Source: Chloroflexota bacterium
GTDB taxonomy: Bacteria > Chloroflexota > Anaerolineae > J102
Assembly: GCA_041918515.1 (NCBI GenBank)
Contig: JAYRVO010000064.1
Span: 23,050 to 87,049 of the forward strand
Length of the DNA stretch: 64,000 nt
Reading direction: 5' to 3'
Part shown: positions 6,888-44,479 of the stretch, in pieces
Layout of the letters: each line of letters begins with the position of its first letter
How positions within the stretch are numbered: position 1 is the first letter of the stretch
Position numbers and translations under genes: made by a program
The notes under the pieces: generated by a model
What the model saw: the letters and a program-made list of their open reading frames with translations, nothing else
What the model was told of the DNA's origin: nothing
The model's database searches: none

Positions 6888-6953
6888 CAAAAGACGCTCC
6901 TCGCCTCTCTTTCCTCGTCTCCCCGCCTCCTCGCCTCCCCATCTCCCCCACCC

Positions 6954-8750: not shown

Positions 8751-8754
8751 TCCC

Positions 8755-9531
8755 ATGTTAGCCAAACGCATCATTCCCTGCCTCGATGTCAAAGACGGCC
8801 GCGTCGTCAAAGGCATCAATTTCCTGCAACTGCGCGACGCCGGCGATCCGGTCGAACAAGCACGCATCTACGATGCCGAGGGCGCCGATGAGCTCGTTTT
8901 TCTTGACATAACTGCAACGCATGAGGGCCGCAACATCATGTTGGATGTGGTGCGCGCCGTGGCCGATTCAGTCTTCATCCCCTTCACGGTCGGCGGCGGG
9001 CTACGTACGGTCGAGGACATGCGGGCCATGCTCCAGGCCGGGGCCGACAAAGTGTCGATCAACTCCGCCGCTGTGGCTCAGCCCGATCTCATCAGCGCTG
9101 GCGCCGAGCAATTCGGCAGCCAGTGCATCGTCGTTGCTATCGACGCCCGGCGACGGAGCGAGGGCGGTTGGGAGGTGTACACGCACGGCGGCCGCAAGCC
9201 CACCGGTATCGACGCCATCGCCTGGGCGCAGGAGGCGGTGGGGCGAGGTGCGGGCGAAATCCTCCTCACCAGCATGGATCGCGATGGCACCGCCGCCGGT
9301 TACGACATCGAACTGCTGCGCGAAGTCGCCGACGCTGCGCACGTACCCATCATCGCCAGCGGCGGCGCCGGCCTGCCCGAACACTTTTTCGAGGCGCTGA
9401 CCAATGGTGGAGCCGACGCCGCTCTCGCCGCCACCCTTTTTCATTACAAACAACTGACCGTGCCTGATCTCAAACGCTTTCTGCTCGAACGCGGCCTGCC
9501 CATTCGCCCGGTGGAGGCCCGCCATGCTTGA
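8755..9531 (+). CDS. hisF: imidazole glycerol phosphate synthase cyclase subunit
   Basis: [32 protein letters not shown] and SGGAG motifs. Confidence 0.9.
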
Positions 9532-14177: not shown

Positions 14178-14570
14178 ATGGCTCATCTCCCCATTTCTGA
14201 ACAGGAAGAGCATATCGCCAGGCATATTGTGGACGCGGCGTTTACGGTTCACCGCACGCTTGGGCCTGGTCTGCTGGAGAGCGTGTATGAAGTTTGTTTC
14301 TGCCACGAGCTTGCTAAACGAGGCCTGTCACACCAACGACAGGTTGTCGTACCGATTCTTTACGATGGCCTCTGCATCGATGATGGCCTGCGGCTCGATG
14401 TTCTTGTCGAAGAGTTGGTCATTTGCGAATTGAAAGCCGTGGAAGTGGTTCATCCTGTATTTACGGCGCAATTGCTGACCTATCTGAAACTGACCGAAAA
14501 ACGGCTGGGATTTCTCATCAACTTCAATGTGCCCTTGATCAAGCAGGGTATCCAACGCTTTGTTCTTTGA
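14178..14570 (+). CDS. GxxExxY protein (PD-(D/E)xK nuclease-like fold family)
   Basis: 131 aa. GPGLLESVYEVCFCHEL is the GxxExxY motif. Conserved ..GFLINFN C-terminus. Confidence 0.65.
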   Translation: MAHLPISEQEEHIARHIVDAAFTVHRTLGPGLLESVYEVCFCHELAKRGLSHQRQVVVPILYDGLCIDDGLRLDVLVEELVICELKAVEVVHPVFTAQLLTYLKLTEKRLGFLINFNVPLIKQGIQRFVL

Positions 14571-14940
14571 ACTTTGTGCCTTTGTGTCTTCGTGGTGAAT
14601 ATAACCACCTCCACTTTCACACCAGCCATGCTCTTCCGCTCCTTGTTCTTTGACCTTCGTGCCTTTGTGTCTTCGTGGTGAATATAACCACCTCCACTTT
14701 CACGCCAGCTATGCGCTTCCGCTCCTTGTTCTTTGACCTTCGTGCCTTTGTGTCTTCGTGGTGAATATAACCACCTCCACTTTCACGCCAGCTATGCGCT
14801 TCTGCTCCTTGTTCTTTGACCTTCGTGCCTTTGTGTCTTCGTGGTGAATATAACCACCTCCACTTTCACACCAGCTATGCGCTTCCGCTCCTTGTTCTTT
14901 GACCTTCGTGCCTTTGTGTCTTCGTGGTGGATGGAGTTTT
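14561..14940. repeat. 83-bp tandem repeat, about 4.6 copies
   Basis: The motif tgttctttga recurs at 14561, 14644, 14727, 14810 and 14893 (period 83). Unit: ..gtgcctttgtgtcttcgtggtgaatataaccacctccactttcac(g/a)ccagc(c/t)atgcgcttc(c/t)gctccttgttctttgacc. An imperfect inverted copy (cacgaagacacgaag) lies at 14130-14170. Confidence 0.9.
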
Positions 14941-14945
14941 GACTG

Positions 14946-17900
14946 ATGTATTTCCGCCTTGAACTTACCCCCCGCCGCGGCCCGGACGACGGCCGCGCCA
15001 AAGCCACCCTGGCCACTTGCCGCGCCCTCGGCCTGACCGACCTCCCCCCCGTCGTCGTCTCCGACCTCTACTTCCTCGACGCCGACTTGTCCTTGCCCGA
15101 AGTCGAAGCCCTGGCCGCCACCGCCCTCCTCGACCCCGTCGCCGCCGAGCTTGTCGTTCAGCCACAGCCACAGCCATCGTCCATCGTCCATCGTCCATCG
15201 TCCGTCGAAATCACCTTCCTCCCTGGCGTCACCGACAGCGTGGCCGACAACCTGCTGGCGGTGGCGCACAGCCTGGGCTACGAAAACGTGCGGGCGGCGG
15301 CATCCGGCTTGAGCTACAGCTTCCTCGGCGAAGTCACCCCCACTGACCTCGACCACATCGCCCGCGACCTTTTGGCGAACGGCACCGTGCAACGCTATGT
15401 GATCGGCCAGCAGATTGCGCCGCCGTTCGTGGAAACGCACGAGCTGGCCGCGGGTGAGCGTTTGGTCGAGACCATCGCCATTCGAGATCAGGGCGAAACC
15501 GGGCTGCTCGCTCTCAGCCGTGAGCGCCGCCTCAGCCTCGATCTGGCAGAGATGCAAGCGATCCAGGCGTATTTTCGCAGTGAAGGTCGCGAGCCAACCG
15601 ATGTCGAGCTGGAAACCCTGGCGCAGACCTGGTCCGAGCATTGTGTGCACAAAACGTTTCGGGCGGAGGTGGAGTACCGGAGCGAGGAGGGAGATATCCC
15701 CGCTTCTTCGCCTCCCGTTTCCTCGCCTCTCCTCATCGACGGCCTGCTGAAGACGTATATCCGGGCAGCGACGGAGGCGGTGAATAAGCCGTGGGTGCGC
15801 TCAGCGTTTGTGGACAACGCCGGCATCATCGCCTTCGACGACACGTTCGACCTGGCCTTCAAGGTGGAAACGCACAACCACCCCTCGGTGCTGGAGCCGT
15901 TCGGCGGAGCGGACACGGGTGTGGGCGGGGTCATCCGCGACATTTTGGGCGTCAGCGCCAAGCCCATCGCCAACACCGACGTGCTCTGCTTTGGGCCGGA
16001 AGACTTGCCGGATGACAAACTCCCGGCCGGGGTGCTGCACCCGCGCCGCGTCGCCGCCGGGGTCATCCACGGCATCGAAGATTACGGCAACAAGATGGGC
16101 ATCCCCACCGTGAATGGAGCCGTGCACTATCATCCCGGCTACACCGCCAACCCGCTGGTCTATTGCGGTTGCCTGGGCATTTTGCCGCGCGGCAGCCACC
16201 GTTCGTTGCACGAAGCGCAGGCTGGCGACCTCATCGTCGCCATCGGCGGGCGCACGGGGCGCGACGGGCTGCGCGGGGCCACGTTCTCCAGCATGGAAAT
16301 GGATCACACCACCGGGGCCATCGCCAGCACCGCCGTGCAGATCGGCAACCCCATCGTCGAAAAGCAAGTGATGGAGGTGATCCTGCGGGCGCGCGACGCT
16401 AGGCTGTACAACGCCATCACCGACTGCGGCGCCGGCGGATTCAGCTCGGCGGTGGGCGAGATGGGCGAGCACGTGGGCGCGAGCGTGCAGCTTCAGGGCG
16501 TTCCGCTCAAATATCCGGGCTTGCAGCCGTGGGAGATTTGGCTTTCGGAGGCGCAAGAGCGCATGGTGCTGGCCATCTCGCCAGCCCATTGGCTGGCATT
16601 CCAGCAGATTTGCCGGGCGCACGATGTCGAAGCCAGCATCCTGGGCGAGTTCGATGGCTCCGGCCGATTGCGCGTGGCCTACGGCGAGACAATCGTGGCC
16701 GATCTCGACATGCACTTCCTGCACGATGGCGTCCCCCGCCGCCGCCTCACGGCCGTTTGGTCCCCGCCCGACCTGGCCAACCCCAACCCCGCCTCCTCGC
16801 CTCCTCCCCACCTCGCCTCCTCACTCCTCCGCCTCCTCGCCTCCGCCAACATCCGTTCGCGTGCCCCCATCATCCACCGCTACGACCATGAAGTCCAGGG
16901 CGGAACGGCTGTCAAGCCGCTAGTCGGGGTCGATCAGTGCGGGCCGAGCGACGCAGCAGTCGTGATCCCCCAACCGCTCCTCGCCTCCTCTTCCCCACCC
17001 GCAACTCGCCACCCGTTTCCCGCAGCCGTTTTGTCCGCCGGCCTCAACCCCCGCTACGGCCTCATCGACCCGTATGCTATGGCCTGGGCCTGCGTGGACG
17101 AGGCTTTTCGCAATGCCGTGACTGTGGGCGCTGACCCCGACCGTATCGCCATCCTCGACAATTTTTGCTGGGGCAACCCCAATCTACCCGACCGCCTTGG
17201 CGCGCTCGTGCGCTGCGCCCAGGGCTGTTTCGATGCTGCCATCGTTTATCAAACGCCTTTCATCTCTGGCAAAGATAGCTTGAACAATGAGTACATGGGC
17301 GAGGATGGCCAGAAGCACGCCATCCCCGGAACCCTGCTCATCTCCGCCCTCGGCATTGTCCCGGATGTGACCCGCACGACCACGAGTGACCTGAAAGCGC
17401 CCGGCGATTATCTTTATCTTTTGGGCGAGACTCGCCCCGAACTCGGCGGCTCGGCCTATCTCGACCTGCTCGGCGAAATCGGCACTTCCGTCCCCCAATC
17501 CTATCCTGCCCCGCTCGACCGCCTGCGCGCTCTGCACGGGGCCATCGCCGCCGGACTCGTGCGCGCCTGCCACGACCTCAGCGAAGGCGGGCTGGCCGTG
17601 GCCCTGGCCGAAATGTGCATCGGCGGCGGTTTGGGAGCGGAAATCAACCTGTCAAGCATTCCTCCCCAATCCTCAATAACCAATACCCAATTACTTTTCT
17701 CCGAATCCCTCGGCCGCTTCCTGATCGAGGTCGAGCCTGGCCATGCGGTCGAGTTCGAAGCGATGCTGGCAGGGCAGCCCGTGGCGTCGATCGGACGGGT
17801 GACCGCCGAGAAGAATATGGTTCTTGACGCTGGAACTGAGCGCGTCGAGGTCTCGATTGCCGACCTGAATCATGCTTTCTGTGGAGAACCGGCGCCATGA
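14946..17900 (+). CDS. purL: phosphoribosylformylglycinamidine synthase subunit PurL with N-terminal PurS-like extension
   Basis: 984 aa. PurL AIR-synthase-related domains (HKTFRAEVEY, ETHNHPSVLEPFGGADTGVGGVIRD, AIGGRTGRDG). Contains several in-frame low-complexity repeat inserts. Confidence 0.85.
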   Translation: MYFRLELTPRRGPDDGRAKATLATCRALGLTDLPPVVVSDLYFLDADLSLPEVEALAATALLDPVAAELVVQPQPQPSSIVHRPSSVEITFLPGVTDSVADNLLAVAHSLGYENVRAAASGLSYSFLGEVTPTDLDHIARDLLANGTVQRYVIGQQIAPPFVETHELAAGERLVETIAIRDQGETGLLALSRERRLSLDLAEMQAIQAYFRSEGREPTDVELETLAQTWSEHCVHKTFRAEVEYRSEEGDIPASSPPVSSPLLIDGLLKTYIRAATEAVNKPWVRSAFVDNAGIIAFDDTFDLAFKVETHNHPSVLEPFGGADTGVGGVIRDILGVSAKPIANTDVLCFGPEDLPDDKLPAGVLHPRRVAAGVIHGIEDYGNKMGIPTVNGAVHYHPGYTANPLVYCGCLGILPRGSHRSLHEAQAGDLIVAIGGRTGRDGLRGATFSSMEMDHTTGAIASTAVQIGNPIVEKQVMEVILRARDARLYNAITDCGAGGFSSAVGEMGEHVGASVQLQGVPLKYPGLQPWEIWLSEAQERMVLAISPAHWLAFQQICRAHDVEASILGEFDGSGRLRVAYGETIVADLDMHFLHDGVPRRRLTAVWSPPDLANPNPASSPPPHLASSLLRLLASANIRSRAPIIHRYDHEVQGGTAVKPLVGVDQCGPSDAAVVIPQPLLASSSPPATRHPFPAAVLSAGLNPRYGLIDPYAMAWACVDEAFRNAVTVGADPDRIAILDNFCWGNPNLPDRLGALVRCAQGCFDAAIVYQTPFISGKDSLNNEYMGEDGQKHAIPGTLLISALGIVPDVTRTTTSDLKAPGDYLYLLGETRPELGGSAYLDLLGEIGTSVPQSYPAPLDRLRALHGAIAAGLVRACHDLSEGGLAVALAEMCIGGGLGAEINLSSIPPQSSITNTQLLFSESLGRFLIEVEPGHAVEFEAMLAGQPVASIGRVTAEKNMVLDAGTERVEVSIADLNHAFCGEPAP

Positions 17901-18490
17901 CAACCGGATCACCATCCCCTGCCGGCCTGCCCATTCTGCTGTTCACGAACCCGCAAGAATGGGCCGATTGGCTCGACCGCTATCACGCCGATGCTGCTGG
18001 CGTGTGGCTACGCCTGGCGAAGAAGGCATCCAGCCTGACGTCCGTGACTTACGACGAGGCGGTGGAGGTGGGGCTGTGTTATGGCTGGATCGATGGCCAG
18101 AGCAAGCGCTATGACGCCGATTCATGGCTACAGAAGTTCACGCCGCGTTCGTCCAAGAGCATTTGGTCGAAAGTGAACACGCAAAAGGCGCAGAGACTGA
18201 TCGCAGAGGCCCGGATGAAACCGGCGGGGCTGCGGGAGGTGGAGCGCGCCAAGCAAGATGGACGTTGGGCAGCGGCGTATGACCCCCAGAGCACGGCTGT
18301 CGTTCCCGAAGATTTGCAGGTCGAACTCGACGACAATCCGGAGGCGAAGGCATTCTTCCAGACTCTCGACAGCCGCAATCGTTACGCCATCCTGTTCCGC
18401 ATCCAGACCGCCAACAAGCCCGAGACCCGCGTAAAGCGAATTCAGCAATTTATGGCCATGCTGGCGAAAGGGGAGAAGTTGTATCCATGA
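17897..18490 (+). CDS. YdeI/OmpD-associated family protein
   Basis: GVWLRLAKK..YDEAVEVGLCYGWIDGQSKRYDADSWLQKFTPRSSKSIWSKVN pattern. Overlaps the purL stop. Confidence 0.65.
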   Translation: MTTGSPSPAGLPILLFTNPQEWADWLDRYHADAAGVWLRLAKKASSLTSVTYDEAVEVGLCYGWIDGQSKRYDADSWLQKFTPRSSKSIWSKVNTQKAQRLIAEARMKPAGLREVERAKQDGRWAAAYDPQSTAVVPEDLQVELDDNPEAKAFFQTLDSRNRYAILFRIQTANKPETRVKRIQQFMAMLAKGEKLYP

Positions 18491-18555
18491 TACCCATCGC
18501 CATCCTCCACGCCCCCGGCACGAACCGGGACACCGACGCCGCTATCGCTTGTTAG
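18487..18555 (+). pseudogene. remnant duplicate of purQ 5' end
   Basis: ATGATACCCATCGCCATCCTCCACGCCCCCGGCACGAACCGGGACACCGACGCCGCTATCGCT is near-identical to the genuine purQ start at 19318 (MIPIAILHAPGTNRDTDAAIA vs MPPPPIAILHAPGTNRDTDAAIA). Terminated by TAG, then the TA cassette. Confidence 0.55.
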
Positions 18556-18981
18556 TTAGCCAGTCTTCCAAGCTTCGCTTAGGAAGCCACGTGGGGTGAC
18601 AATAGCAACGCCACGGAATGGATTGAGCCGAAGCAAATCACTATCTCCACTCACAATGCACTTTGCATTCCCACTGACCGCAAGCTCGATAAACTTATCG
18701 TCGCTAGGGTGACGGCAAGCTCGGATACGTTCGGCCGCTTCGATGAGTTTGGTTTCCCGCAGTAGCACAGCCAGGAATTCAAGTCGTTCCTCTTCACTTA
18801 CATACCTGGCAAAACCAGGACGCCCCAGCACTTCATTCAGCTCAGAGAGAGTCTCCACAGAAACGAGCAGATCACCATCGGCGATTGCTTTATCGAAAGC
18901 TTGACGTGGCAGCGAATGCTTCAATAAAGCTGCACCAACAACCGCATTCGTATCGAACACGAAACGTGGTCTAACGCTCAC
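18556..18981 (-). CDS. PIN domain toxin (type II TA system)
   Basis: RFVFDTNAVV..(acidic residues)..CIVSGDSDLL layout of PIN nucleases. 141 aa. Confidence 0.7.
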   Translation of the reverse strand: MSVRPRFVFDTNAVVGAALLKHSLPRQAFDKAIADGDLLVSVETLSELNEVLGRPGFARYVSEEERLEFLAVLLRETKLIEAAERIRACRHPSDDKFIELAVSGNAKCIVSGDSDLLRLNPFRGVAIVTPRGFLSEAWKTG

Positions 18982-19198
18982 GTAGCAACTCTTCGAGTTT
19001 TTCTTCAGTCAATCCACGTTCCATTGCTTTGTCACTCATTTCATCCATGATGTTGGCTAAAGAACTAGAACGAGTCGCGTATTCACGTAGCCAAAGATTC
19101 ATCAGCATCTGTAGTTTTGATTTGGTCTCTTTCGATGCCGAACGATAGGCTTGTGCTAATTCGGAATCGACTTGCAGTGTGACAGTGGCAAGCGCCAT
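18971..19198 (-). CDS. antitoxin (cognate to PIN toxin), start uncertain (19198-19246)
   Basis: Small ORF overlapping the PIN start by 11 nt (MALATVTLQVDSELAQAY...EEKLEELLRER). Confidence 0.5.
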   Translation of the reverse strand: MALATVTLQVDSELAQAYRSASKETKSKLQMLMNLWLREYATRSSSLANIMDEMSDKAMERGLTEEKLEELLRER

Positions 19199-19317
19199 TT
19201 CGTTTCGCTCCTGTAATCCATTTGAGGAACTCATCATGCTGTTCACATTATAGCACCCTCATCCTGGTCTCCTCAATTCCTCGCCCCTTCGCCCCCTCAA
19301 CTCCCTCGCCTCACCCC

Positions 19318-20136
19318 ATGCCCCCACCTCCCATCGCCATCCTCCACGCCCCCGGCACCAACCGGGATACCGACGCCGCCATCGCTTTCGAGCTGGCTGG
19401 CGGCAGCCCTGAAATCGTCCACGTCAACCAACTTCTCGCTGGCGAACGCCGCCTCGCTGACTACGCCCTGCTCGTCGTTCCCGGCGGCTTCTCGTATGGC
19501 GACGACCTGGGCGCGGGCAAACTGTGGGCCGTGCGCCTGCTGCACGATCTCGGCGAGCAGCTTCGTGCTTTTGCGGATGCGGGCAAACCCATCCTCGGCA
19601 TCTGCAACGGATTCCAGGTGCTGGTGAAGACGGGGCTGCTGCCGGGAGCAGGGGACGAAGGTGGCAAGTGGCAGGCGGCAATCTCCAATAACCAATCTCC
19701 AATAACCAATCTCCAACTCGCCACCCTCACCCGCAACGAATCCGCGCATTTCGAATGCCGATGGGTGTGGCTAGAGCCGAATGTTGCCAATCGTTCACCC
19801 TGGTTGGCCGGACTCGACCGCATCCATTGCCCGGTAGCGCATGGCGAAGGCAACTTCATGACCCGCGACGCCGCTGCACTCGATGCCATCCTGTCGCAAA
19901 ACCTCGTTGCCTTCAGCTATGTCGATGCCGATGGCCGCCCCGGCCCCTATCCGATCAACCCCAACGGCTCGGCCGCCGACATCGCCGGCGTGACGAACGC
20001 CAGCGGCAACATCCTCGGCCTGATGCCACATCCCGAAGACCATATCTTTCCCTGGCAGCACCCGGCGTTCCATCGCGGCACGGCCGGCTGTTCCGGTCTG
20101 AAACTTTTCCAGAATGGCGTCTCCATGACAAAGTGA
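19318..20136 (+). CDS. purQ: phosphoribosylformylglycinamidine synthase subunit PurQ (glutamine amidotransferase)
   Basis: IAILHAPGTNRD, GGFSYGDD, GICNGFQVL (Cys) and HPE motifs. Contains an in-frame ccaataacc/ccaatctcc insert ([17 protein letters not shown]). Confidence 0.85.
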   Translation: MPPPPIAILHAPGTNRDTDAAIAFELAGGSPEIVHVNQLLAGERRLADYALLVVPGGFSYGDDLGAGKLWAVRLLHDLGEQLRAFADAGKPILGICNGFQVLVKTGLLPGAGDEGGKWQAAISNNQSPITNLQLATLTRNESAHFECRWVWLEPNVANRSPWLAGLDRIHCPVAHGEGNFMTRDAAALDAILSQNLVAFSYVDADGRPGPYPINPNGSAADIAGVTNASGNILGLMPHPEDHIFPWQHPAFHRGTAGCSGLKLFQNGVSMTK

Positions 20137-20212
20137 CTGGGTGACAAGGTGACAAGGTGATCGCAGCGACATCACCTTGTCACCTTGTCACCTTGTCACC
20201 TTGCCACCGTAT
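20137..20212. repeat. GGTGACAA-family octamer hairpin
   Basis: gtgacaaggtgacaaggtgatcgcagcgacatcaccttgtcaccttgtcaccttgtcacc, a perfect inverted arrangement. Confidence 0.85.
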
Positions 20213-20236
20213 CAAGCAACCCAAGGATCTCCCACC

Positions 20237-21508
20237 ATGACTGTCACCGCAATCGTCGGCGCCCAATGGGGCGATGAAGGCAAAGGCCGCATCATCGACA
20301 ACCTGGCCCAGCAGGCCGATGTCGTCATCCGCTTTCAGGGCGGCGACAACGCCGGCCACACCGTCATCAACCAGTTCGGCAAACACGCCCTCCATCTCGT
20401 CCCCAGCGGCATCTTCAACCCCGCCACCCAAAACATCATCGGCACGGGCTGCGTCGTCAACCCGCAATCGCTGTTGGCCGAGCTGGAAGGTCTGACCGCC
20501 GCTGGGGTCAACCTCGATAACCTGTGGATCAGCTCCCGCGCTCAAATGCTGCTGCCCTATCATCGCACGCTGGATGTGCTGGAAGAAGGTGCGCGGGGCA
20601 AAGACACCATCGGCACCACCAAGCGCGGCATCGGCCCGGCCTATGCCGATAAATCCGCTCGCGCGGGCTTGCGCATGGGCGACTTGCTCCAACCCGATTG
20701 GCTGGAATCCCGGCTGGATAGCGCACTCGGCAGCGTCAACCGCAAGCTGCAAATCCTGGGCGGCGAACTTATCGACGGCTCGGAATTGTACGCGTTGTGC
20801 CTGGAGTTCAGAGAAAAGCTGGGGCGACGGATCATCGACACCGTCCCCATGATCCGCCGTTCGCTCGAAATCGGCGCCGACATCTTGCTGGAAGGCCAGC
20901 TCGGCGTCATGCGCGACCTCGATTGGGGCATCTACCCCTATGTGACCAGCAGCAACCCCACTGCCGCCTATGCCGCCAGCGGGGCCGGACTGCCCGCCCG
21001 CTGCATCGACCGCGTCATCGGCGTCGTCAAAGCCTACAGTACGGCTGTGGGCGACGGCCCCTTCCCCACCGAACTGCACGACGCCGACGGCCAGAAACTG
21101 CGCGAGATCGGCCAGGAGTTCGGGGCCACCACCGGCCGGCCCCGGCGCTGCGGCTGGTTCGACGGCGTGGCCATTGGTTATGCCGCCTGGCTTAACGGCA
21201 TGACTGGCCTGGCCATCACCAAGCTGGATGTGCTCGACGCCTTCGAGACGATCAAAATCTGCACGGGCTACCGCCTGCCTTCGGGCGAGATCATCACCGA
21301 TTCCATGCCCGCCACCCCCACGCTCTACCAAGTCACGCCGGTGTACGAAGCCTGGGACGGCTGGCTGACCTCGACCGCCGACTGCCGCCGTTGGGACGAT
21401 CTGCCCAAGCAGGCGCGGGCCTACATCCACCGCCTGAGCGAATTGGCCGGGATCAAGGTCGATTATGTGTCCGTCGGGCCGGAGCGGGAGCAGATGTTTG
21501 CGGTTTGA
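20237..21508 (+). CDS. purA: adenylosuccinate synthetase
   Basis: [21 protein letters not shown] and [10 protein letters not shown] motifs with GTP-binding elements. Confidence 0.92.
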
Positions 21509-21568
21509 CCCACCGCCTGCGACGGGATAGAATGCGAGTAATCGGAATTTCGGAAATCAGGAGGAGCT

Positions 21569-21847
21569 ATGGCCACTGACACGATTCAGATGCGCGCCAA
21601 GGGCAGCATCACCATTCCAATTGAATATCGAAAGAAATATGCGCTCGAGGAAGGTGATGTGTTTACACTCGTAGATCTCGGAGATGGAAGCTTCGTAATC
21701 GTGCCGCGCGTATCATTACTGCCGAAACTAGTGGCTGAACTCGAAGCCATTCGCGAGGAAGCCGGCGTCACGGTCGAGGATCTATTGGCTGATGTTCCCA
21801 AATACCGCCAACAGATCTACGAGGAACGCTATCGTGGGCGGTTCTGA
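21569..21847 (+). CDS. AbrB/MazE/SpoVT-type antitoxin
   Basis: IQMRAKGSITIPIEYRKKYALEEGDVFTL swapped-hairpin pattern. AGGAGG ribosome-binding site. Confidence 0.6.
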   Translation: MATDTIQMRAKGSITIPIEYRKKYALEEGDVFTLVDLGDGSFVIVPRVSLLPKLVAELEAIREEAGVTVEDLLADVPKYRQQIYEERYRGRF

Positions 21848-22295
21848 AACGAACGCGCCGCGTATCTTCTTTGACACTTCTGTCGTGTTGGCCTGCGCGT
21901 TTTCAAAGAGGGGTGCCAGCTATGTTCTAATCGAGCTGGCAAACCTCACGCTGATCGAAGGGCGTATTTCGCCTGACGTGCGTGAGGAGGTGTTGCGCAA
22001 TGCTCCTTCGAAGATGCCTGCGGCTATGCCTGCCTTGCGCTCGATCCTTTCCGAATATCTGATCGAAGGTCCGGCGCCATCGGCTGAAATGCTGATCACG
22101 ATGCGCGGCTATGCTGACGTCAAAGATGTCCCCATCCTGGCGGCAGCGATCGAGCAGAGGTGTCGGTACCTGGTGACGCTGAACGAGCGCGATTTTTGGC
22201 CGCCCTCAACTTTGATCACAATTGTGCGCCCGGGCGATCTGCTCTCGGCTATTCGGAAGCAGGTTGGTACGTTGATCATGGGAAATGATTTGTAG
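21834..22295 (+). CDS. PIN domain toxin
   Basis: GTG start overlapping the antitoxin stop. [19 protein letters not shown] acidic residues. Confidence 0.6.
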
Positions 22296-22302
22296 GTTTG
22301 CC

Positions 22303-22388
22303 CTACCTTCACCGCCTGAGCGAACTGGCTGGGATCAAAGTCGATTATGTGTCCGTAGGGCCGGAGCGGGAGCAGATGTTTGCGGTTT
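22303..22388 (+). repeat. copy of purA 3' end (..[24 protein letters not shown]-stop)
   Basis: About 90% identical to 21421-21508 at nucleotide level, including the stop codon. Confidence 0.85.
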
Positions 22389-22496
22389 GACGCCCCGCCT
22401 CTGGCCGCATCCCTGTTTGATTGGATATCGACGGGGTGGCATAATAGGGGCCAGAATTTATTCCTAATTCGAGGGCCAGCTCAGGAGGCCATGCTC

Positions 22497-22730
22497 ATGG
22501 AACGGGTTAAGGTCAGTCTAACGCCCCCGCTAAACGAATTTCTTAGCCGCCACGCATTCTACGGCTTCTCGGATAAGAGCGCGATGGCCCGCGCCGCTTT
22601 GTCTCGCCTGAAAGAAGAGATTGAGTTGCAGCTTCTGCAGCAATCCGCCGATCTGTATGCTGAGGAGTATGAAGATGATCGGGAATTGCAGGAATTGACG
22701 AAAGCGGCGCTGGCAGGATGGCCAGAATGA
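22497..22730 (+). CDS. RHH/CopG-like antitoxin (MazE-type partner)
   Basis: MERVKVSLTPPLNEFL... AGGAGG 8 nt upstream. ATGA overlap with mazF. Confidence 0.5.
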   Translation: MERVKVSLTPPLNEFLSRHAFYGFSDKSAMARAALSRLKEEIELQLLQQSADLYAEEYEDDRELQELTKAALAGWPE

Positions 22731-23083
22731 GCGCCCTGCGACGGGGGATGGTGGTCGAGGTCGATCTCGATCCGACGCTTGGTTCGGAGACAGGGAAGAC
22801 GCGGCCATGCGTGATCGTGACGAACGATGTCTACAACGAACGCGTGCCTGTGATTCAGGTTGTTCCGATCACGGCCTGGAGCGAGAACAAGGGCCGGATC
22901 AGGACGAACGTCGAGCTATTCCCCAGTTCTGATAACGGCTTGACGAAACGGTCGGTGGCCGATTGTCTGCAAACTCGTCCGGTCGATCATCGCTTGCGAT
23001 TGGTCGCCATTCTGGGTGAGCTAACAAAAACAGAAATGGGGCAGATCGATGAGGCACTAAAAGTCATATTTGCGCTAAAATGA
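22727..23083 (+). CDS. mazF: MazF/PemK family endoribonuclease toxin
   Basis: [30 protein letters not shown] is the MazF/PemK signature. Confidence 0.75.
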
Positions 23084-23215
23084 GCGAGCTGGCCGGAATC
23101 AAGGTCGATTACGTGTCGGTGGGGCCGGAGCGAGAGCAGATGTTTGCGGTATGACCGACCACTCCACCTACCTCTCCCCCTTCACCTGGCGCTATGGCTC
23201 CGACGCCAGTCGCTT
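23084..23215 (+). repeat. copy of purA 3' end fused (ATGA) to a purB-like 5' start ([19 protein letters not shown])
   Basis: gagcgagctggccggaatcaaggtcgattacgtgtcggtggggccggagcgagagcagatgtttgcggtatgaccgaccactccacctacctctcccccttcacctggcgctatggctccgac. Confidence 0.8.
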
Positions 23216-23252
23216 TTTCTCTTCGATTTGCCGCCCGCCATTTGTCGTACTA

Positions 23253-23275
23253 TGCTTTCTCGTACTTACACTATA
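23253..23275. promoter_or_regulatory. palindromic operator-like site upstream of the phd/doc-like pair
   Basis: tcgtacttacactataagtacga (9-bp inverted repeat) with an extra gtcgtacta half-site upstream. Typical of TA autoregulation. Confidence 0.35.
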
Positions 23276-23308
23276 AGTACGAGTACCCCAACAGGACGAG
23301 ATCAAATC

Positions 23309-23551
23309 ATGGTGCGCAAAATCTTCCGAACCGGCAACAGCATGGTCATCGCCCTGCCCAAAGAAATGCTCGATCCCCTTCGTCTGGGCGAAGGCGCCGA
23401 GGTGGATGTGCAGTTCGACCGCGCCCGCGGGGTGATCACCGTCTCGCCAGCGCCGGTGATGGTCAAAGGCGTGGATGAGGATTTCGCCCGGCAGGTCAGC
23501 GAGTTCATCGACCAATACCGTCCTGCCCTGGAAGCTCTGGCGCGGGCATGA
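23309..23551 (+). CDS. AbrB-type Phd-like antitoxin
   Basis: MVRKIFRTGNSMVIALPKEML. ATGA overlap with doc. Confidence 0.55.
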   Translation: MVRKIFRTGNSMVIALPKEMLDPLRLGEGAEVDVQFDRARGVITVSPAPVMVKGVDEDFARQVSEFIDQYRPALEALARA

Positions 23552-23931
23552 TCTATCTCTCGGTCGAGCAAGTACTGTTCGTCCACATGCGCTTGATCAG
23601 CGAGATTGGCGGTAGCCCTGGCATCCGTGATCTGGCGCTGCTGGCATCGGCAGTGGCTCGACCGCAGGCTATTTTTGGCGGCCAGTACCTCTATCCCGAC
23701 CTGGCCAGCAAGGCGGCGGTGCTCATGGATTCGCTGATGCGCAACCACCCTTTTATCGATGGCAATAAGCGAGTGGGAATCACGGCCGCCAGCTTGTTCC
23801 GGCAATTGAATGGCTACAGATTGACCGCATCCTCTGCCGAAGTCGAACTCTTCACCCTCCAGGTTGCCCGCTCGGAACTGACGCAAGTGCAGATCGCCGC
23901 CTGGTTTCGCTCTCACGGCGCCGCAAATTGA
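23548..23931 (+). CDS. doc: Doc (death-on-curing) toxin, Fic/Doc family
   Basis: HPFIDGNKRVGITAASLF Fic/Doc motif. 127 aa. Confidence 0.8.
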   Translation: MIYLSVEQVLFVHMRLISEIGGSPGIRDLALLASAVARPQAIFGGQYLYPDLASKAAVLMDSLMRNHPFIDGNKRVGITAASLFRQLNGYRLTASSAEVELFTLQVARSELTQVQIAAWFRSHGAAN

Positions 23932-23990
23932 CCGACCACACCACCTATCTTTTCCCTTTCACCCAGCATTGCGGCTCCGATGACATGCCT
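23929..23990 (+). repeat. degenerate copy of purB-like 5' start
   Basis: tgaccgaccacaccacctatcttttccctttcacccagcattgcggctccgatgacatg. Confidence 0.6.
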
Positions 23991-24016
23991 CGGGGCCAGG
24001 CTGCCTCGCCCCGTTT

Positions 24017-24025
24017 GTGGTATCA
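24017..24025 (+). promoter_or_regulatory. extended -10 promoter candidate (TGGTATCAT)
   Basis: TGnTATCAT upstream of the MNT/HEPN pair. Confidence 0.3.
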
Positions 24026-24074
24026 TGGCTCGTAACATACGATTGAGCGCGACCTGTTCTGTGATCGTGAAACT

Positions 24075-24431
24075 ATGTCGCAAACGAACGCCACAGGAAC
24101 ACACCCTGTTCGCTACACTCCCTCTCCAACCGTCGAAACGCTACGCGAGGCAGCGCCCAGCTTTTGGGCGGATTTGACTCGCGCACACATGATATTGCAG
24201 GAGGCGGGGTGTACTGATATCTACGTCTTTGGGTCGCTGGTTAGCGGGCGGGCGCGTTCGGATTCAGATATCGATTTAGCGGTGCGGGGTTGCCCTAAAG
24301 GTAAGTTCTTCCATTTGCTTGGACAGCTCATGTTCCAGTTGGAGCATCCTGTGGATTTAGTCGATCTTGATGGGAATCACTCGTTTGCCGAATTCCTGGA
24401 GAGAGAAGGGGGCCTGGTGCGAATTGAATGA
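24075..24431 (+). CDS. MNT nucleotidyltransferase antitoxin (Pol-beta superfamily)
   Basis: YVFGSLVSGRARSDSDIDLAV NTase motif. Confidence 0.7.
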   Translation: MSQTNATGTHPVRYTPSPTVETLREAAPSFWADLTRAHMILQEAGCTDIYVFGSLVSGRARSDSDIDLAVRGCPKGKFFHLLGQLMFQLEHPVDLVDLDGNHSFAEFLEREGGLVRIE

Positions 24432-24894
24432 GAAATTTGTATCTCAGATTCGTTTTGAAGTTGGGGAAATCGAACACCTGATCGTCGCCTATGCAGAGTT
24501 GCTGGCGACATCTGTCAGCACGATGCCAGATCAGGTGCACCTTGCTGCTTTGGCGGCAGTCTTGCATTCGTTTTATTCTGGCGTGGAGCGGATTTTTCTG
24601 ACCATCGCCAATTCGATTGATGGCATGACGCCTACAGGACAGCAGTGGCATCGTGATTTGCTCGCACAAATGACCATTGCCACTCGACATCGTCAGTCGG
24701 TTTTGTCAACTGGAGCAGCGGCGCACTTACGCGACTACTTGGCATTTCGTCACTTCTTCCGACATACGTACTCGTTCTATCTGGATTGGGATGAGATGGC
24801 AGAACTTGTGCGAATGCTACCAGCGGTTTGGGCAGAGACGAAAGGGGACATCGAACACTTTCTCACAACGATTGATCTACCACACAGGCCGTGA
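24425..24894 (+). CDS. HEPN domain toxin (HepT-like), probable TTG start overlapping MNT stop
   Basis: Adjacent and overlapping an MNT gene. Alpha-helical ~155 aa protein with an R(x)4-6H-like region (RHRQSV..RHFFRHT). Confidence 0.55.
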
Positions 24895-24940
24895 GAGTGG
24901 ACCACACCACCTACCTCTCCCCCTTCACCTGGCGCTACCA
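24893..24940 (+). repeat. short copy of purB-like 5' start
   Basis: gtggaccacaccacctacctctcccccttcacctggcgcta. Confidence 0.6.
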
Positions 24941-25018
24941 CGTCTTTGCGATGCCCAATTTCTTGCGACTTGCCCTCTAAAACTTGGTGTGCTAACCTGC
25001 ATTTCAGGAGACTCAACT

Positions 25019-25312
25019 ATGATCAACCAGGTGACACTCACTTCGCCGCGGCAGCGCCCACTCAAACCACTCATCGAAGCGGCGTTGAACAGCGAGATGC
25101 GACTTCTGCAAACCGCCATCCAACGCACCGAACGACATCTGCAGGAATTCGAGGTCGCTTATGGCATGACGAGTGACGAATTTGTGCGGCGTTTTGAAAA
25201 CGATGACTTGCCAGAAACGCTCGACTTCGTCGACTGGATCGGCGAGTATCGGCTCTTGAACCGGTTGAGCGATAAAGCAGATGCCTTCATGGAGATCAAG
25301 TTTGCTCATTGA
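25019..25312 (+). CDS. hypothetical protein (first gene of unassigned two-gene cassette)
   Basis: 98 aa. AGGAG ribosome-binding site 8 nt upstream. Overlaps the next ORF. Confidence 0.4.
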   Translation: MINQVTLTSPRQRPLKPLIEAALNSEMRLLQTAIQRTERHLQEFEVAYGMTSDEFVRRFENDDLPETLDFVDWIGEYRLLNRLSDKADAFMEIKFAH

Positions 25313-25691
25313 CGTCTACTTTCGCCAGATCGCCGAGCTAATCGAAAATTGTGCGATCGTGCAGTCAGCGAATGTCGCCTACGACAAACGGGGCAGGTAT
25401 GAGGGATATATACGCGGGGAAATCTATTTTGTCGATGGCTCAGTTCTCCATCTTCGTGAATTCATCGATGTGGAATCCGAGGTGGAGCGCCTTACCTATG
25501 CCTACCAATACATGAACGCCAACCAGGCATTGATATTTCGCTATGACAACACGGGGCACCATCGGAGACTTCTGTTGCCCACCCATCCCCATCACAAGCA
25601 TGTTGGTGGCGAGACCACCGTGATTGCCTCGTCCGCGCCTCATCTCGCCGAAGTGCTCGATGAAATCCTGATGTCAATGACCTGGACCTGA
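25281..25691 (+). CDS. hypothetical protein (second gene of unassigned cassette, putative TA-like)
   Basis: About 130 aa. Overlaps the upstream gene. No motif I can assign. Confidence 0.35.
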
Positions 25692-25957
25692 TGACCGACC
25701 ACACCACCTACCTCTCCCCCTTCACCTGGCGCTGCGGCTCCGACGACATGCGCCAGATTTTCTCCGAAATCCATCGCCGCAAGCTGTGGCGGCGGATTTG
25801 GGTGGCGCTCTCGCCCAGACCCTGCAAGATTTGGGGGTCGATTGGGAAGAAATCCGCCGGGCGCGGGCCTACATCCACCGCCTGAGCAAACTGGCCGGGA
25901 TCAAAGTCGATTACGTGTCCGTCGGGCCAGAGCGGGAGCAGATGTTTGCGGTTTGAG
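25691..25957 (+). pseudogene. chimeric fragment: purB-like 5' end (~50 codons, frameshifted) joined to purA 3' end
   Basis: [38 protein letters not shown], then (after a 1-nt shift) [49 protein letters not shown]-stop. The N-terminus resembles E. coli PurB (SP.DGRYG...IFSE...VEVRWL). Confidence 0.55.
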
Positions 25958-26014
25958 CATCTAAATCATAGGTTTACCAGATAGCAATTCTTTTCACCAA
26001 GGAGCCTTCATTTC

Positions 26015-27151
26015 GTGGATATTTCCCCTTACGGCGTCCCTCAAAACCGTCGCCATCGCGTGCTGGCGGCCATCCGGCACGAAGAAACCGACTACACACC
26101 CTACAACTTTCACTCCATCCCCATGGTCTACCACGCCATCCGGGATTACTACGGCCTGCGGGATAGCGAGGAAGTGGCGGATTTCATCGGCAACCACGTC
26201 GTCAAGATTGGCACCGACTTCAACTACAACCCCTGGGCCAGCGAGATCAAACAGCTCGACCTGACCCCCAGCGGCGGCCCTGTCCACACCAATCTCGACG
26301 CCAAAGGCGAGCTGCACATGGACGAATTTGGCTGCGTGTGGGACCGGCAGTCGGGCATGCCCCACCCCGTGGCCTATCCCATCGCTGATGACCACCGCAA
26401 GCTGGAGAGCTACCAGATGCCTGACCCCCACCGTCAGGGTCGTTTCGACCAGGCCCAAGCCCTGGCCGACCGCTGGCGCGACAAAGCCTTCATCTTTGGC
26501 AAGCTGGGCATGGTGATGTTCGAACGCGCCTGGAGCATTCGCAGCATGCCGCAACTGATGATGGACATGAAAAAACGCCCGGAATTCGTCCACGAGCTGA
26601 TGGATCGCATCCTCTATGAGTGGGATTTGCCCATCATCGACCTGCAATGCGACATCGGCATCGACGGCATGTACTTCGCCGATGATTGGGGCACCTCGGC
26701 CGGCCTCATGTTCAGCCCCGACTATTGGCGCACCTTCATCAAGCCCCGGCTGGCCGTCATCTTCAATCGCTGTCACCAGAACGGCGTCTACGTCGGCCTG
26801 CACTCCGACGGCAAGATCGCCCCGCTCTTCCCCGAACTGATCGAGATTGGGCTGGACATCTTCAATCCCCTGGAGCCGGCGGCCATGGACCGGCTGGAAA
26901 TAAAGCAGCTGTACGGCGACAAACTCACCTTCTACGGCGGGCTGGATGTCGAGCACACCATGCCCTTCGGCACAGCCGAAGACGTGCGCCAGGAAACGCG
27001 CTGGCTGGTGGAGAACCTGGGCAAAGGCGGCGGCTACATCCTGCAGACCAGCCATCAGGTGCTGTGGGACACGCCGATGGCGAATATCGTCGCCTACATC
27101 GAGGAGGTGCGGGCGATGGCAGGGTTGGAGACGCCGCGGGTAAACTCGTGA
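26015..27151 (+). CDS. uroporphyrinogen decarboxylase (URO-D) family protein (methyltransferase/decarboxylase fold)
   Basis: 378 aa. URO-D-like architecture. C-terminal region (GGGYILQTSH) typical of MtaA/CmuA/URO-D family. Confidence 0.7.
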   Translation: MDISPYGVPQNRRHRVLAAIRHEETDYTPYNFHSIPMVYHAIRDYYGLRDSEEVADFIGNHVVKIGTDFNYNPWASEIKQLDLTPSGGPVHTNLDAKGELHMDEFGCVWDRQSGMPHPVAYPIADDHRKLESYQMPDPHRQGRFDQAQALADRWRDKAFIFGKLGMVMFERAWSIRSMPQLMMDMKKRPEFVHELMDRILYEWDLPIIDLQCDIGIDGMYFADDWGTSAGLMFSPDYWRTFIKPRLAVIFNRCHQNGVYVGLHSDGKIAPLFPELIEIGLDIFNPLEPAAMDRLEIKQLYGDKLTFYGGLDVEHTMPFGTAEDVRQETRWLVENLGKGGGYILQTSHQVLWDTPMANIVAYIEEVRAMAGLETPRVNS

Positions 27152-27225
27152 TGATGCTTGTAGTAACGACTTTAGTCGTTAACGATCATATGAACGACTA
27201 AAGTCGTTACTACGAACTTTCGTCT
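27150..27225. repeat. palindromic element GTAGTAACGACTTTAGTCGTTA present as an inverted pair
   Basis: gtagtaacgactttagtcgttaacg...cgactaaagtcgttactac. The same 22-mer recurs at 50710. Likely a bidirectional terminator between convergent genes. Confidence 0.7.
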
Positions 27226-27413
27226 TGCTTATCTTTTTCTATAGCTACCTCGTTATTCGACGTTTCTGCTGGTTTCCATATGCCTCTTGGCTGCAATCGC
27301 TGCATTTGCTCGATGATAGCGACCTTCTCTTCCCAGGACAAAGCCGACAAGGCGCGCCTTCGTTCCGCTTTGGCGGCCAGGATGGCGGAAATGTCATAGT
27401 AGGCTTTCTCCAT
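27210..27413 (-). CDS. hypothetical small protein
   Basis: 67-aa ORF downstream of the NTase-like gene. Charged, helical. Confidence 0.3.
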   Translation of the reverse strand: MEKAYYDISAILAAKAERRRALSALSWEEKVAIIEQMQRLQPRGIWKPAETSNNEVAIEKDKQDESS

Positions 27414-27426
27414 ACTTGCTCCTTGT

Positions 27427-27942
27427 TCAGTCCTCGGTCAGAAACCGTCGCCGGAAATTCTCCCATCGCCCCATAAGTTCATGGCGAAGCAGGATGGCCC
27501 GCAGTTTCTCTTGATCCAGCACCTGCGCCTCAAGAAATTGGAGCAATCGAGCGTGGTCTTTCGGACGACCGGTCTGTAACATGATGGCCGCCAAGTGTTC
27601 GGCAGTAAAAACACGAGTCGGGGTCGAGCCGAAGTTCACCGAAATAGCTTGCTCCATCGCTTCCTCTGTCAGCGGGTTGAAGACCGGCAGGAATTGGATC
27701 GGCCAACCTTCGACGATGATCGCTTCTCCCTGCGGAACATAGCCACGCTCGCTCAAGTAACGATAAATGGGACTGAGTGAAACTAGGCCAACTGGCAGTA
27801 TGGGGAAGAATACAAAAACGTCGAGATCAAAGGTCTGGACGGGTTCGATATAAAAGGTGGCGGCCACTGCTCCACCAATAGCATAGTGCTTGATGATCCC
27901 TTCGCTTTGCATGAGGTTGATGATGGCCAAAGTTCGTTCCAT
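27427..27942 (-). CDS. nucleotidyltransferase-fold protein (AbiEii/MNT-like), hypothetical
   Basis: HYAIGGAVAATFY..TFDLDVFVF resembles a GG(S/T)A...D.D NTase motif. About 172 aa. Confidence 0.4.
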   Translation of the reverse strand: MERTLAIINLMQSEGIIKHYAIGGAVAATFYIEPVQTFDLDVFVFFPILPVGLVSLSPIYRYLSERGYVPQGEAIIVEGWPIQFLPVFNPLTEEAMEQAISVNFGSTPTRVFTAEHLAAIMLQTGRPKDHARLLQFLEAQVLDQEKLRAILLRHELMGRWENFRRRFLTED

Positions 27943-28355
27943 AGTGGGAGTATAGCGCCTGCGCCTTCTCTTGAACAAGCTCATCCAAACAGGTCACATA
28001 TGCGAGTTTTGACAGCGGCAATCAGAGAAGGGCGCTCGCCTGTCGCACTCCACCCTCCCGGTCTGGGGACGGCGGGGCTTGCCGCGTGTCGCTATGTTCG
28101 TCTTGGGTAAGCGTCCAGAGATAGAGGACAACGAGAGCAATGATGATGAGAACAATCATGGGGATCTCCGAAGCAGTGGCGGGGATGAACGACGTCAGAT
28201 TGATTCTGACAGGCCAAAGTGAACATAGCTTGAAAACGGAGAGCAGCTTGCGTGACAGTTCTTTCACCTGACCAACATCGTTGCCGGATGCGTCGCCTGT
28301 TTCCTCGACGGCGACGTTATCTCACAAAATTTCTTCAAAATAATTAGAAAATACC

Positions 28356-34501: not shown

Positions 34502-34582
34502 GTAGAGATTAGAGATTAGAGATTGCAATCTCCAATCTCTAATCTCTAATCCCCAATAACCAATCTCCAATAACCAATAACC
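34502..34582. repeat. GAGATTA / CCAATAA heptamer hairpin
   Basis: gtagagattagagattagagattgcaatctccaatctctaatctctaatccccaataaccaatctccaataaccaataacc. Confidence 0.85.
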
Positions 34583-34585
34583 ACC

Positions 34586-35512
34586 ATGGCCCTCGCCCAA
34601 CCCCTCGCCTCTTCGTCGCCCCGCCCATCCCGTTGGCAACGGACGTGGAAGAGCCTGTCCATCGTTTTCGAGTCGCGCGTCGCCACCGTTGGCCTGGTCA
34701 TCGTCGTCTTTTGGTTTACGGTCGGCATCCTCTCGCTGTTCTGGACGCCGGCCCTGCCCAATGCCCAGCTTTTCAAGCCGAACCTCAAGCCAAATGTCGT
34801 TAACTGGCTGGGGACGGACAACCTGGGCCGCGACGTGACCTCGCGCCTGATGGTGGGCACGCAAGTGATCTTGTTGAAAACCCGGTTGCCCGGAGAGAGG
34901 GGCATCGTCATCCCCGGCGGAGTGGCGCTGTGGGGCGTGTTCGGCGCGCTGGTGCTCGGCTCCATCCTCGGCCTGAACGCTGGCTATCGTGGCGGGTGGT
35001 GGGATCAGAGCATCATGCAAGTGCTCGATGCTTTGGTGGCATTTCCGGCCATCGTGCTCTATCTCGTCATCATCACGGCCTTCAGCCAGGGCGATCTCGT
35101 GGTGATCTTCGCTATCACGATCACCGGCGCGCCCGGCATGGCGCGCTTGGTGCGCAGCCTTACGCTCGATATCAAAACGCGCGACTACATTCGCGCCGCC
35201 GAGACGCGTGGCGAACGTTTGGGCTGGATCATGTTCCGCGAGATCCTGCCCAATGCCCGCGGCCCACTGCTGGTGGATGCCACCCTGCGCGTGGGCTACG
35301 CCATCTTCGCTATCGGCACCCTGGGTTTTTTGGGCGTGGGCTTACCCCCGCCCGACCCCGATTGGGGCAGTATGGTCAACGACGCCCGTCGCTATATCTT
35401 CGCCAATGCCTGGGGCGTCATCCCGCCTTCGGTTGCCATCGCCTCTCTGGTCATCGGTCTGAACCTTTTGGCCGACGGCCTGCGCGAGGAACTAGCGCGC
35501 TATCAGAGATAG
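34586..35512 (+). CDS. ABC transporter permease (OppC/DppC type)
   Basis: Six TM helices. ARLVRSLTLDIKTRDYIRAAETRG EAA motif. Confidence 0.85.
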   Translation: MALAQPLASSSPRPSRWQRTWKSLSIVFESRVATVGLVIVVFWFTVGILSLFWTPALPNAQLFKPNLKPNVVNWLGTDNLGRDVTSRLMVGTQVILLKTRLPGERGIVIPGGVALWGVFGALVLGSILGLNAGYRGGWWDQSIMQVLDALVAFPAIVLYLVIITAFSQGDLVVIFAITITGAPGMARLVRSLTLDIKTRDYIRAAETRGERLGWIMFREILPNARGPLLVDATLRVGYAIFAIGTLGFLGVGLPPPDPDWGSMVNDARRYIFANAWGVIPPSVAIASLVIGLNLLADGLREELARYQR

Positions 35513-40692: not shown

Positions 40693-40708
40693 GATGGCGA
40701 TGTGCTTT

Positions 40709-44479
<3,771 letters not shown>

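Follow-up and report, generated by a model that had tools for sequence, protein, structure and literature searches.

Chromosomal integrons, such as the superintegrons of Vibrio, carry cassette arrays that include toxin–antitoxin (TA) cassettes. At rhs and contact-dependent inhibition (CDI) loci, recombination of an incoming allele takes place within the conserved gene region, and the old end and its partner are displaced downstream as an orphan with a stub. Homology-facilitated illegitimate recombination is known mainly from laboratory transformation assays in naturally transformable bacteria. The minimal mobile elements of Neisseria, a concept that reportedly goes back to Saunders and Snyder, are said to be different small cassettes at a fixed spot between conserved genes, with no recombinase; exchange is said to occur when DNA is taken up and recombines homologously within the genes on either side. 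Homology-facilitated illegitimate recombination reportedly couples a homologous anchor to a nearby microhomology join, as de Vries and Wackernagel in 2002 and Prudhomme et al. in 2002 are said to have described. To our knowledge, neither a natural serial array nor the use of both neighbouring essential genes as anchors has been described. Here, we analyse a 64-kb stretch of DNA from a Chloroflexota bacterium (contig JAYRVO010000064.1, positions 23,050–87,049; hereafter the window), in which truncated ends of the purine biosynthesis genes purA and purB alternate with five different type II TA cassettes. The 4.4-kb array (21509–25690) is closed by a purB–purA chimera at 25691–25961. The array was probably built by serial TA additions through one-sided homologous plus illegitimate recombination, with the chimera as its dead terminal scar. 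The preliminary description of this DNA, which had flagged the chimera as a pseudogene, overlooked that repeated purA and purB fragments bound five TA cassettes, recognized here by their Pfam families.

The array follows an intact purA gene (adenylosuccinate synthase; 20234–21508, plus strand), which scores 528 bits on PRK01117 (cut-off 402) and 466 bits on TIGR00184. Its product shares 89% amino acid identity (tblastn) with PurA of the closest relative found, L016 (Chloroflexota metagenome-assembled genome JAKOVD010000142.1), whose PurA and PurB served as the tblastn queries. The purA tail is found four times (T0, T1, T2 and T5) and the purB head also four times (H2, H3, H4 and H5), and a 25-mer from the purB head occurs three times in the window, against 0.00 expected. 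All of these elements and all five cassettes lie on the plus strand. T0 (21412–21508) is the functional tail and comprises the last 97 nt of purA, plus 10 nt past the stop codon. It is followed by cassette 1 (21509–22301; GC content 0.544), with a MazE/AbrB-type antitoxin gene (21569–21847; PF04014) and a PIN toxin gene (21792–22295; PF13470). Scar T1 (22302–22400) contains purA codons 396–423, the stop codon and 10 nt, and is 92% identical to T0. Cassette 2 (22401–23082) consists of a gene for a 79-residue upstream partner (22491–22730) and a MazF/PemK toxin gene (22718–23083; PF02452, E = 3e-25). Scar T2 (23081–23154) spans purA codons ∼399–423 plus the stop codon, which overlaps the ATG of scar H2 (23151–23210; purB codons 1–20) in an ATGA sequence at 23151; this overlap looks like the original purA/purB junction. 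Cassette 3 (23211–23927) combines an AbrB/MazE antitoxin gene (23309–23551; PF04014) with a Fic/Doc toxin gene (23548–23931; PF02661). The TTG start of scar H3 (23928–23990; purB codons 1–21, decayed) overlaps the Doc stop codon, and H3 differs from H5 by five nonsynonymous and four synonymous changes. Cassette 4 (23991–24895) encodes an MNT nucleotidyltransferase (24075–24431; PF18765/PF01909) and a HepT/HEPN toxin (24367–24894; PF20797). Scar H4 (24896–24940; purB codons 1–15) has a 37-nt identical run with H5. Cassette 5 (24941–25690) encodes a 97-residue partner (25019–25312) and a TumE toxin (25281–25691; PF20126, E = 6e-23).

Each cassette is a two-gene unit of 0.69–0.91 kb, in which two small adjacent or overlapping genes include one from a recognized toxin family (Pfam). 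On the antitoxin side, MazE/AbrB (twice) and MNT are recognized, and the partners in cassettes 2 and 5 have no Pfam family match. Cassettes 1 and 2 are bracketed by purA tails to the left of the T2/H2 junction, and cassettes 3–5 by purB heads to its right. The stop codon of every toxin gene either adjoins the following scar or overlaps it. The scars vary in length (97, 89 and 72–74 nt for the tails and ∼60, 63 and 45 nt for the heads) and in boundary (purA codons 392, 396 and 399; purB codons 15, 20 and 21). They are diverged (70–95% identity), with identical runs of 30–37 nt between flanking scars, and the cassettes are unique sequence. The cassettes have a GC content of 52–58%, compared with 63–65% for purL, purQ and purA. 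A promoter scan returned one plausible site ahead of cassette 1 and one ahead of cassette 2 (the latter at 22417–22445), from a total count not above shuffled expectation. A regulatory or coding role of the scars was rejected given the decay of H3 and H5 and the absence of an Rfam match; no Rfam family is found within the array or at its boundaries at E ≤ 1.

The chimera at 25691–25961 is built from three pieces: purB codons 1–40 (H5), purB codons ∼164–183 (I5) and purA codons ∼392–423 with the stop codon (T5). An open reading frame (ORF) at 25691–25885 has a purB-like start, and a second frame (25786–25956) ends as the purA C-terminus. The frame-corrected 87-residue fragment matches the purB model TIGR00928 at profile positions 4–39 (E = 8.7e-4) and the purA models PRK01117/TIGR00184 at positions 392–422 (E = 1e-4) in NCBIfam. 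In tblastn searches, residues 7–49 of L016 PurB align at 25685–25813 (E = 2.5e-15), residues 169–191 align in another frame at 25798–25866 (E = 2.3e-4) and residues 386–423 of L016 PurA align at 25843–25953 (E = 8.9e-14). The joins were placed by nucleotide alignment to the relatives' loci L082 and L088. H5 (25691–25809, plus strand) starts at 25692 in these alignments. I5 (25806–25865, plus strand), whose frame differs from that of H5, matches L082 2832–2890 at 80% (E = 3e-8) and L088 2875–2934 at 87% (E = 2e-14; blastn). H5 and I5 overlap over the microhomology CGCT, and relative to L082, 374 nt are deleted between them, which accounts for the change of frame. The join of I5 to T5 (25860–25961, plus strand; stop codon and 5 nt included) lies within a GGCGCGG-type patch that is imperfectly common to purB and purA. 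The 5 nt behind the T5 stop codon match an L082-type allele, not T0.

These assignments confirm that the segment begins with a purB head, as the preliminary description had proposed, and that it merges into the purA C-terminus. The head is of the TIGR00928 type, with no match to the E. coli-type model PRK09285, and the peptide that was read as a continuation after a 1-nt frameshift is instead purB codons ∼164–183, joined to codon 40 by the 374-nt deletion. A simple frameshifted purB was accordingly rejected in favour of a deletion plus truncation. Within H5, the WRYGS motif, which is conserved in all relatives' PurB sequences, carries a Y15C substitution. The fragment scores 18.2 bits on TIGR00928 (cut-off 326.2), far from a full-length PurB of ∼430–475 residues, and purB beyond codon ∼183, including the ADSL_C region and the GSSxMPxKxNP loop that is present in relatives' PurB (for example, those of L016 and P0021), is found neither in 25691–25961 nor in the rest of the window. 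The flagged segment is a non-functional purB remnant and recombination scar, not a gene.

The tail scars point to an origin outside the resident gene. Compared with the live tail, they carry 16 synonymous but only 2 nonsynonymous codon changes (4 and 1 for T1 and 8 and 0 for T2), and 14 of 19 substitutions fall on third positions and none on second positions (binomial p = 4e-4). Because the differences are almost all synonymous, the tail scars came from separate functional purA alleles rather than from decayed local copies. T0 and T1 have a stretch of ∼10 nt behind the stop codon in common, and that of T5 differs. In the model that we favour, each addition would involve homologous recombination in a conserved essential gene on one side, with purA as the homologous anchor for cassettes 1 and 2 and for the last event and purB as the anchor for cassettes 3–5. 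On the other side, an illegitimate join at the level of microhomology would form inside the resident copy of the same gene's end. With a whole replacement end arriving in the incoming DNA, the essential gene would remain intact, and the resident copy of that end would be cut off and displaced beyond the new cassette as a truncated scar (T1, T2 and T5; H2, H3 and H4). T2/H2 would be a fossil of the ancestral purA/purB junction. Such a process would amount to homology-facilitated illegitimate recombination, and Campbell-type entry of a circular fragment would give the same footprint. In the last event, a purA-anchored fragment ending at purB codon ∼183 would have joined the resident purA tail (T5, at codon ∼392), which would already have adjoined a URO-D-like gene. 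The 374-nt microhomology deletion would have removed purB codons 41–163 simultaneously or afterwards. This sequence of events would explain the purA tail after the purB piece without a lost tandem duplication, would place T5 in one class with T1 and T2 and would imply that no function was ever required of the purB piece at this site.

The relatives place the array at a site that is occupied by TA genes elsewhere. A scan of genome contigs with the purB head retrieved 80 loci, the best of which are 73–82% identical; in about 30 of the 80, purA immediately precedes purB. The closest relatives have the order purL-purQ-purA-[TA]-purB-[TA]-purC-GNAT-purE, with an intact purB whose product has 467–475 residues, and the synteny of the window with this order stops at purB codon 40. 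An AbrB-Doc pair corresponding to cassette 3 (71% nucleotide identity to L016) immediately precedes the intact purB in L016, L106 and L108. In L083–L087, the gap is filled by a MazE-PIN pair corresponding to cassette 1, with homology continuous from purA, and in L082 it contains HicB, an internally deleted AbrB-Doc remnant and MazE. No tail or head duplications were found in the relatives' purA-[TA]-purB loci. Since the cassette differs between genomes, this Caldilineales-like Chloroflexota clade has a TA-cassette hotspot in the purA/purB gap, with differing cassettes between the same conserved genes and no recombinase. Stacking of alleles, as opposed to their exchange, was seen in the window alone. 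A second, independent purA'-'purB chimera (P0156) is found in two independent assemblies of a relative (L117 2631–3383, GCA_027031615.1; L118 178–930). In this 250-residue ORF, PurA residues 1–33 are fused in frame to the C-terminal half of PurB (fusion point '...VVIRF|AFDLR...'), and the flanking DUF1501 and Rv0078B-like genes are unrelated. P0156 indicates that the collapse of redundant pur segments by microhomology deletion recurs in the clade. The 25-mer TACCTCTCCCCCTTCACCTGGCGCT (window 25709–25733), which encodes YLSPFTWR, is present without a mismatch in purB genes whose products share only ∼60% identity and is thus not lineage specific; such nucleotide conservation at the 5' end is unusually strong. 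A scan of JGI metagenomes with TACCTCTCCCCCTTCACCTGGCGCT returned 19 loci (L098–L116), in which the closest PurB is 83% identical.

The same scar pattern is seen at purQ. A 58-nt purQ head scar (18493–18550, plus strand) is 95% identical to the real purQ head at 19330–19387, and the two heads bracket a putative VapBC-like pair on the minus strand (18556–19246; GC content 0.51–0.52), a label that rests on the translations of its ORFs. A YdeI-like gene (17897–18490) lies between purL and the purQ head scar.

Compared with the described systems, the locus resembles the Neisseria minimal mobile elements in that purA and purB flank AbrB-Doc, MazE-PIN or HicB-type cassettes depending on the genome. 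Unlike the clean replacement in those elements, the addition here is serial and leaves truncated ends of the flanking genes. The 4–10-nt junction homologies and the variable scar boundaries of the array would fit homology-facilitated illegitimate recombination. Integron arrays are likewise tandem series of small cassettes, promoter bearing or promoterless and many of them TA, that are separated by repeats. Here, however, no IntI was found in the cassette ORFs or in the 20 other large ORFs scanned, and no attI or attC, including at the cassette 3' ends; the repeats are coding fragments with variable ends, and an integron array was therefore rejected. As in integrase islands at the 3' ends of tRNA or protein genes, duplication of the target end goes along with its regeneration, and earlier copies come to lie further out; unlike in such islands, the cassettes measure only 0.7–0.9 kb and contain no integrase, 5' heads are used as well and there is no fixed crossover point. 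For the rhs/CDI polymorphic toxins, recombination with standalone toxin cassettes is mentioned in the literature (PMC3482391). The displacement of an old gene end with part of the conserved region still attached is similar to the C-terminal displacement at these loci, but the displaced end there is the toxin domain itself, whereas here the housekeeping genes purA and purB recombine and the cargo consists of independent TA operons. In the literature searched, TA cassettes bracketed by duplicated essential-gene ends or tied to homology-facilitated illegitimate recombination were not found, and Makarova (2009) makes no mention of flanking repeats. The locus is a clear natural footprint of a known kind of process, not a new system.

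No purB ortholog was found in the 64-kb window by tblastn with L016 PurB, in agreement with the earlier statement that no full-length purB follows the chimera; the next gene is URO-D/MtaA-like (NCBIfam, tblastn). The genes purL, purQ and purA are all intact, with purA scoring above its equivalog cut-off. Adenylosuccinate, the product of PurA, is a dead end without PurB. A working PurB is thus expected elsewhere in the genome. A candidate for the type of gene expected is P0021, an intact 467-residue PurB on a different NCBI contig (19,858 bp) that matches H5 at 40 of 41 residues. In L088, a 90%-cluster mate of P0021 whose head is 92% identical in nucleotide sequence, purB follows an aldo-keto reductase gene and a gene for a 451-residue protein, with an ATGA overlap and no purA. 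A search with the C-terminal 161 residues of P0021 returned only short fragments of ≤78% identity, none of them traceable to the same lineage. Relocation of purB in this lineage is likely, although it is not demonstrated for this genome. Of the earlier proposal that an ancestral purA-purB operon was destroyed or relocated, the ancestry is borne out by the 80 loci and the relatives' gene order and the remnant is indeed a pseudogene; relocation is favoured, not proven.

Several points weigh against the recombination model. No donor and recipient pair is available, so no event is directly reconstructed. Sliding-window identity over purQ-purA reveals no mosaic breakpoint, at a distance of the relatives (L016, L082 and L083; 75–90%) that is too great for power. 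The footprint of one homologous side and a 3–12-nt microhomology join is resolved for two chimera joins only, those at CGCT and at the GGCGCGG-type patch. We know of no natural competence or other DNA-uptake route in this organism, and P0021 could not be linked to this genome. The H5-I5-T5-URO-D joins are without an independent assembly, and no Logan contig was found for the URO-D protein or the chimera ORF. Finally, the donor ends lie 0–8 nt from the toxin stop codons, a neater placement than random illegitimate joins would give; donors in which cassettes and gene ends are immediately adjacent, as in L016 and L083, could account for it. Such tidy ends would also be produced by site-specific accretion, in which a recombinase encoded elsewhere (integron-like or a tyrosine or serine integrase) would recognize att sites at the 3' end of purA and the 5' end of purB, and the repeats would be duplicates of these sites. 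Direct gene-end repeats that flank each cassette, a regenerated target gene, tandem accretion and the ∼10 nt past the stop codon that T0 and T1 have in common all fit this explanation. We nevertheless regard it as unlikely. No recombinase, integrase or transposase domain is encoded in the cassette ORFs or in 20 other large ORFs scanned. The boundaries differ for each event, three targets (purA tail, purB head and purQ head) are used with one cassette inverted, and relatives have the same cassettes at the same spot without repeats. Only three inverted repeats occur in 21400–26100, none of them at a cassette boundary, and Rfam gives no match. An origin by internal rearrangement, with tandem duplication or unequal crossing-over of the purA-tail–purB-head segment, neutral decay and separate TA insertion but no imported alleles, appears similarly doubtful. 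The order of a purB piece followed by a purA tail (25806–25961) is a classic novel joint of a tandem duplication, and the microhomology joins suit replication slippage or template switching. Neutral decay, however, does not fit the excess of synonymous changes and the lack of second-position changes in the tail scars. Moreover, the five cassettes are unrelated TA families rather than copies of one another, the flank behind the T5 stop codon is that of another allele type and the second cassette set or intact purB predicted after T5 is not there. It is also conceivable, if improbable, that the gene ends (purA tail, purB or purQ head) are portable homology arms of recombinase-free TA cassettes. 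Cassettes would then loop out as circles via RecA between scars with 30–37-nt identical runs and re-enter any genome at a matching essential-gene boundary, repairing the gene.

Two further explanations concern the reality of the array and the fate of purB. A chimeric path through metagenome strain variants, with a true genome of intact purA-[TA]-purB, a possibility already raised in the preliminary description as misassembly, is suggested by the metagenome-assembled source, by the 30–37-nt identical repeats and by the terminal joins that lack independent support. Graph chimeras, however, switch only within shared k-mers, and the scar-cassette and chimera joins share 0–7 nt, which is too little for de Bruijn graph switches; the scars are also diverged and the cassettes unique. 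The 1765-bp Logan contig L081 (run SRR26835467), which ends inside head repeats, is 100% identical to 23165–24929 and reproduces the order H2-cassette 3-H3-cassette 4-H4, so misassembly is unlikely for most of the array; another contig of the run has the lyase gene of the window. An assembly or binning artefact is therefore highly improbable. Genuine loss of purB, with adenylosuccinate lyase activity now supplied by the minus-strand lyase encoded at 39334–40725, is very unlikely. Consistent with such a loss, the window has no ortholog, and the lyase has Lyase_1 and ADSL_C domains and scores 357.2 bits on TIGR00928 (cut-off 326.2), against 336.6 on the pcaB model TIGR02426 (cut-off 355.75). It is only 31.6% identical to the PurB of the clade as represented by L016 (tblastn), however, and it scores higher on the NF006500 subfamily, XcbD and 3-carboxy-cis,cis-muconate cycloisomerase (pCMLE) models, each below its cut-off. 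Its best PDB matches, 3c8t ('fumarate lyase') and 1re5 (pCMLE), come ahead of true adenylosuccinate lyases, its neighbours are AP_endonuc_2 (sugar-phosphate isomerase-type) and CBS-domain genes rather than pur genes, and an intact PurB with the N-terminus of this lineage exists in P0021. By sequence comparison, the lyase is a paralog, and its candidacy as the missing purB ortholog was rejected on the 31.6% identity. The preliminary description had called it PcaB-like on the basis of its N-terminus; the gene is on the minus strand, passes TIGR00928 and falls below the pcaB cut-off.

Beyond the chimera, the URO-D/MtaA-like gene (26015–27151, plus strand) has sub-threshold NCBIfam matches to MtaA/CmuA and hemE, is not a pur operon gene and delimits the breakpoint on its far side. 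It is 90.6% identical in nucleotide sequence to Caldilineales relatives across the ORF only (26016–27141), and both flanks are unrelated. The relatives' flanks, a sugar ABC transporter and a dehydrogenase upstream and HEPN/MNT and mutS downstream, are missing here, so the region after T5 is also non-syntenic. From these alignments, the URO-D-like gene looks like a single-gene transfer or replacement. Just past it, a low-GC pair of genes for 67- and 185-residue proteins (27210–27984, minus strand; no NCBIfam match) may be another TA-like insert. The palindromic element GTAACGACTTTAGTCGTTAC, which resembles repetitive extragenic palindromic (REP) sequences, has three copies in the window (27151–27210 and 50701–50732) and is also found in the purL-purQ spacer of a relative (L083 6758–6816).

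Other parts of the window contain inserts and repeats as well. The his operon (hisD, hisC, hisB, hisH and hisA; 4819–7721) is interrupted between hisH and hisA by genes for a 199-residue protein (5482–6081) and a 268-residue Fic-domain protein (6081–6887), with no flanking duplications detected at this insert, and a 1.3-kb gap separates hisC and hisB (2817–4148). The purQ-purA spacer contains a long palindrome of GGTGACAA-type octamers (20121–20209), which gives spurious sub-threshold miRNA matches in Rfam, and about 20 tandem copies of the same octamer type are located at 60005–60191. Short tandem heptamers of the AATAACC/AATCTCC and CTCTCCG types are present at 4760–4835, 8691–8766, 19673–19734, 34527–34602 and 41486–41602; intergenic and at gene starts, they resemble the short tandemly repeated repetitive (STRR) sequences of cyanobacteria. 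A 100-nt tandem repeat of about 3.4 copies with a GTGGACGCGG...CCGCGTCCAC hairpin (60210–60548) has a related single copy 3.6 kb upstream (56622–56707), and an 83-nt tandem repeat of five copies (14477–14974) lies just before and extends into the start of purL.

For annotation, the purB-like ORFs of this locus are scars, the pur operon of this genome is split and an HMM score by itself does not justify the name purB for the lyase at 39334–40725. As a natural record, the locus shows with unusual clarity how selfish TA cassettes pile up between two essential genes without a dedicated recombinase. A displaced gene end serves as the time stamp of each event, and the synonymous divergence of that end points to a different source strain. 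If the gene ends did act as portable arms, they would constitute an integron-like cassette economy in which the host's homologous recombination does the work and housekeeping genes serve as anchors. If such arrays are common in Chloroflexota, they would make it possible to tally horizontal cassette imports and to date them, and would allow one-sided recombination to be studied in uncultured bacteria.

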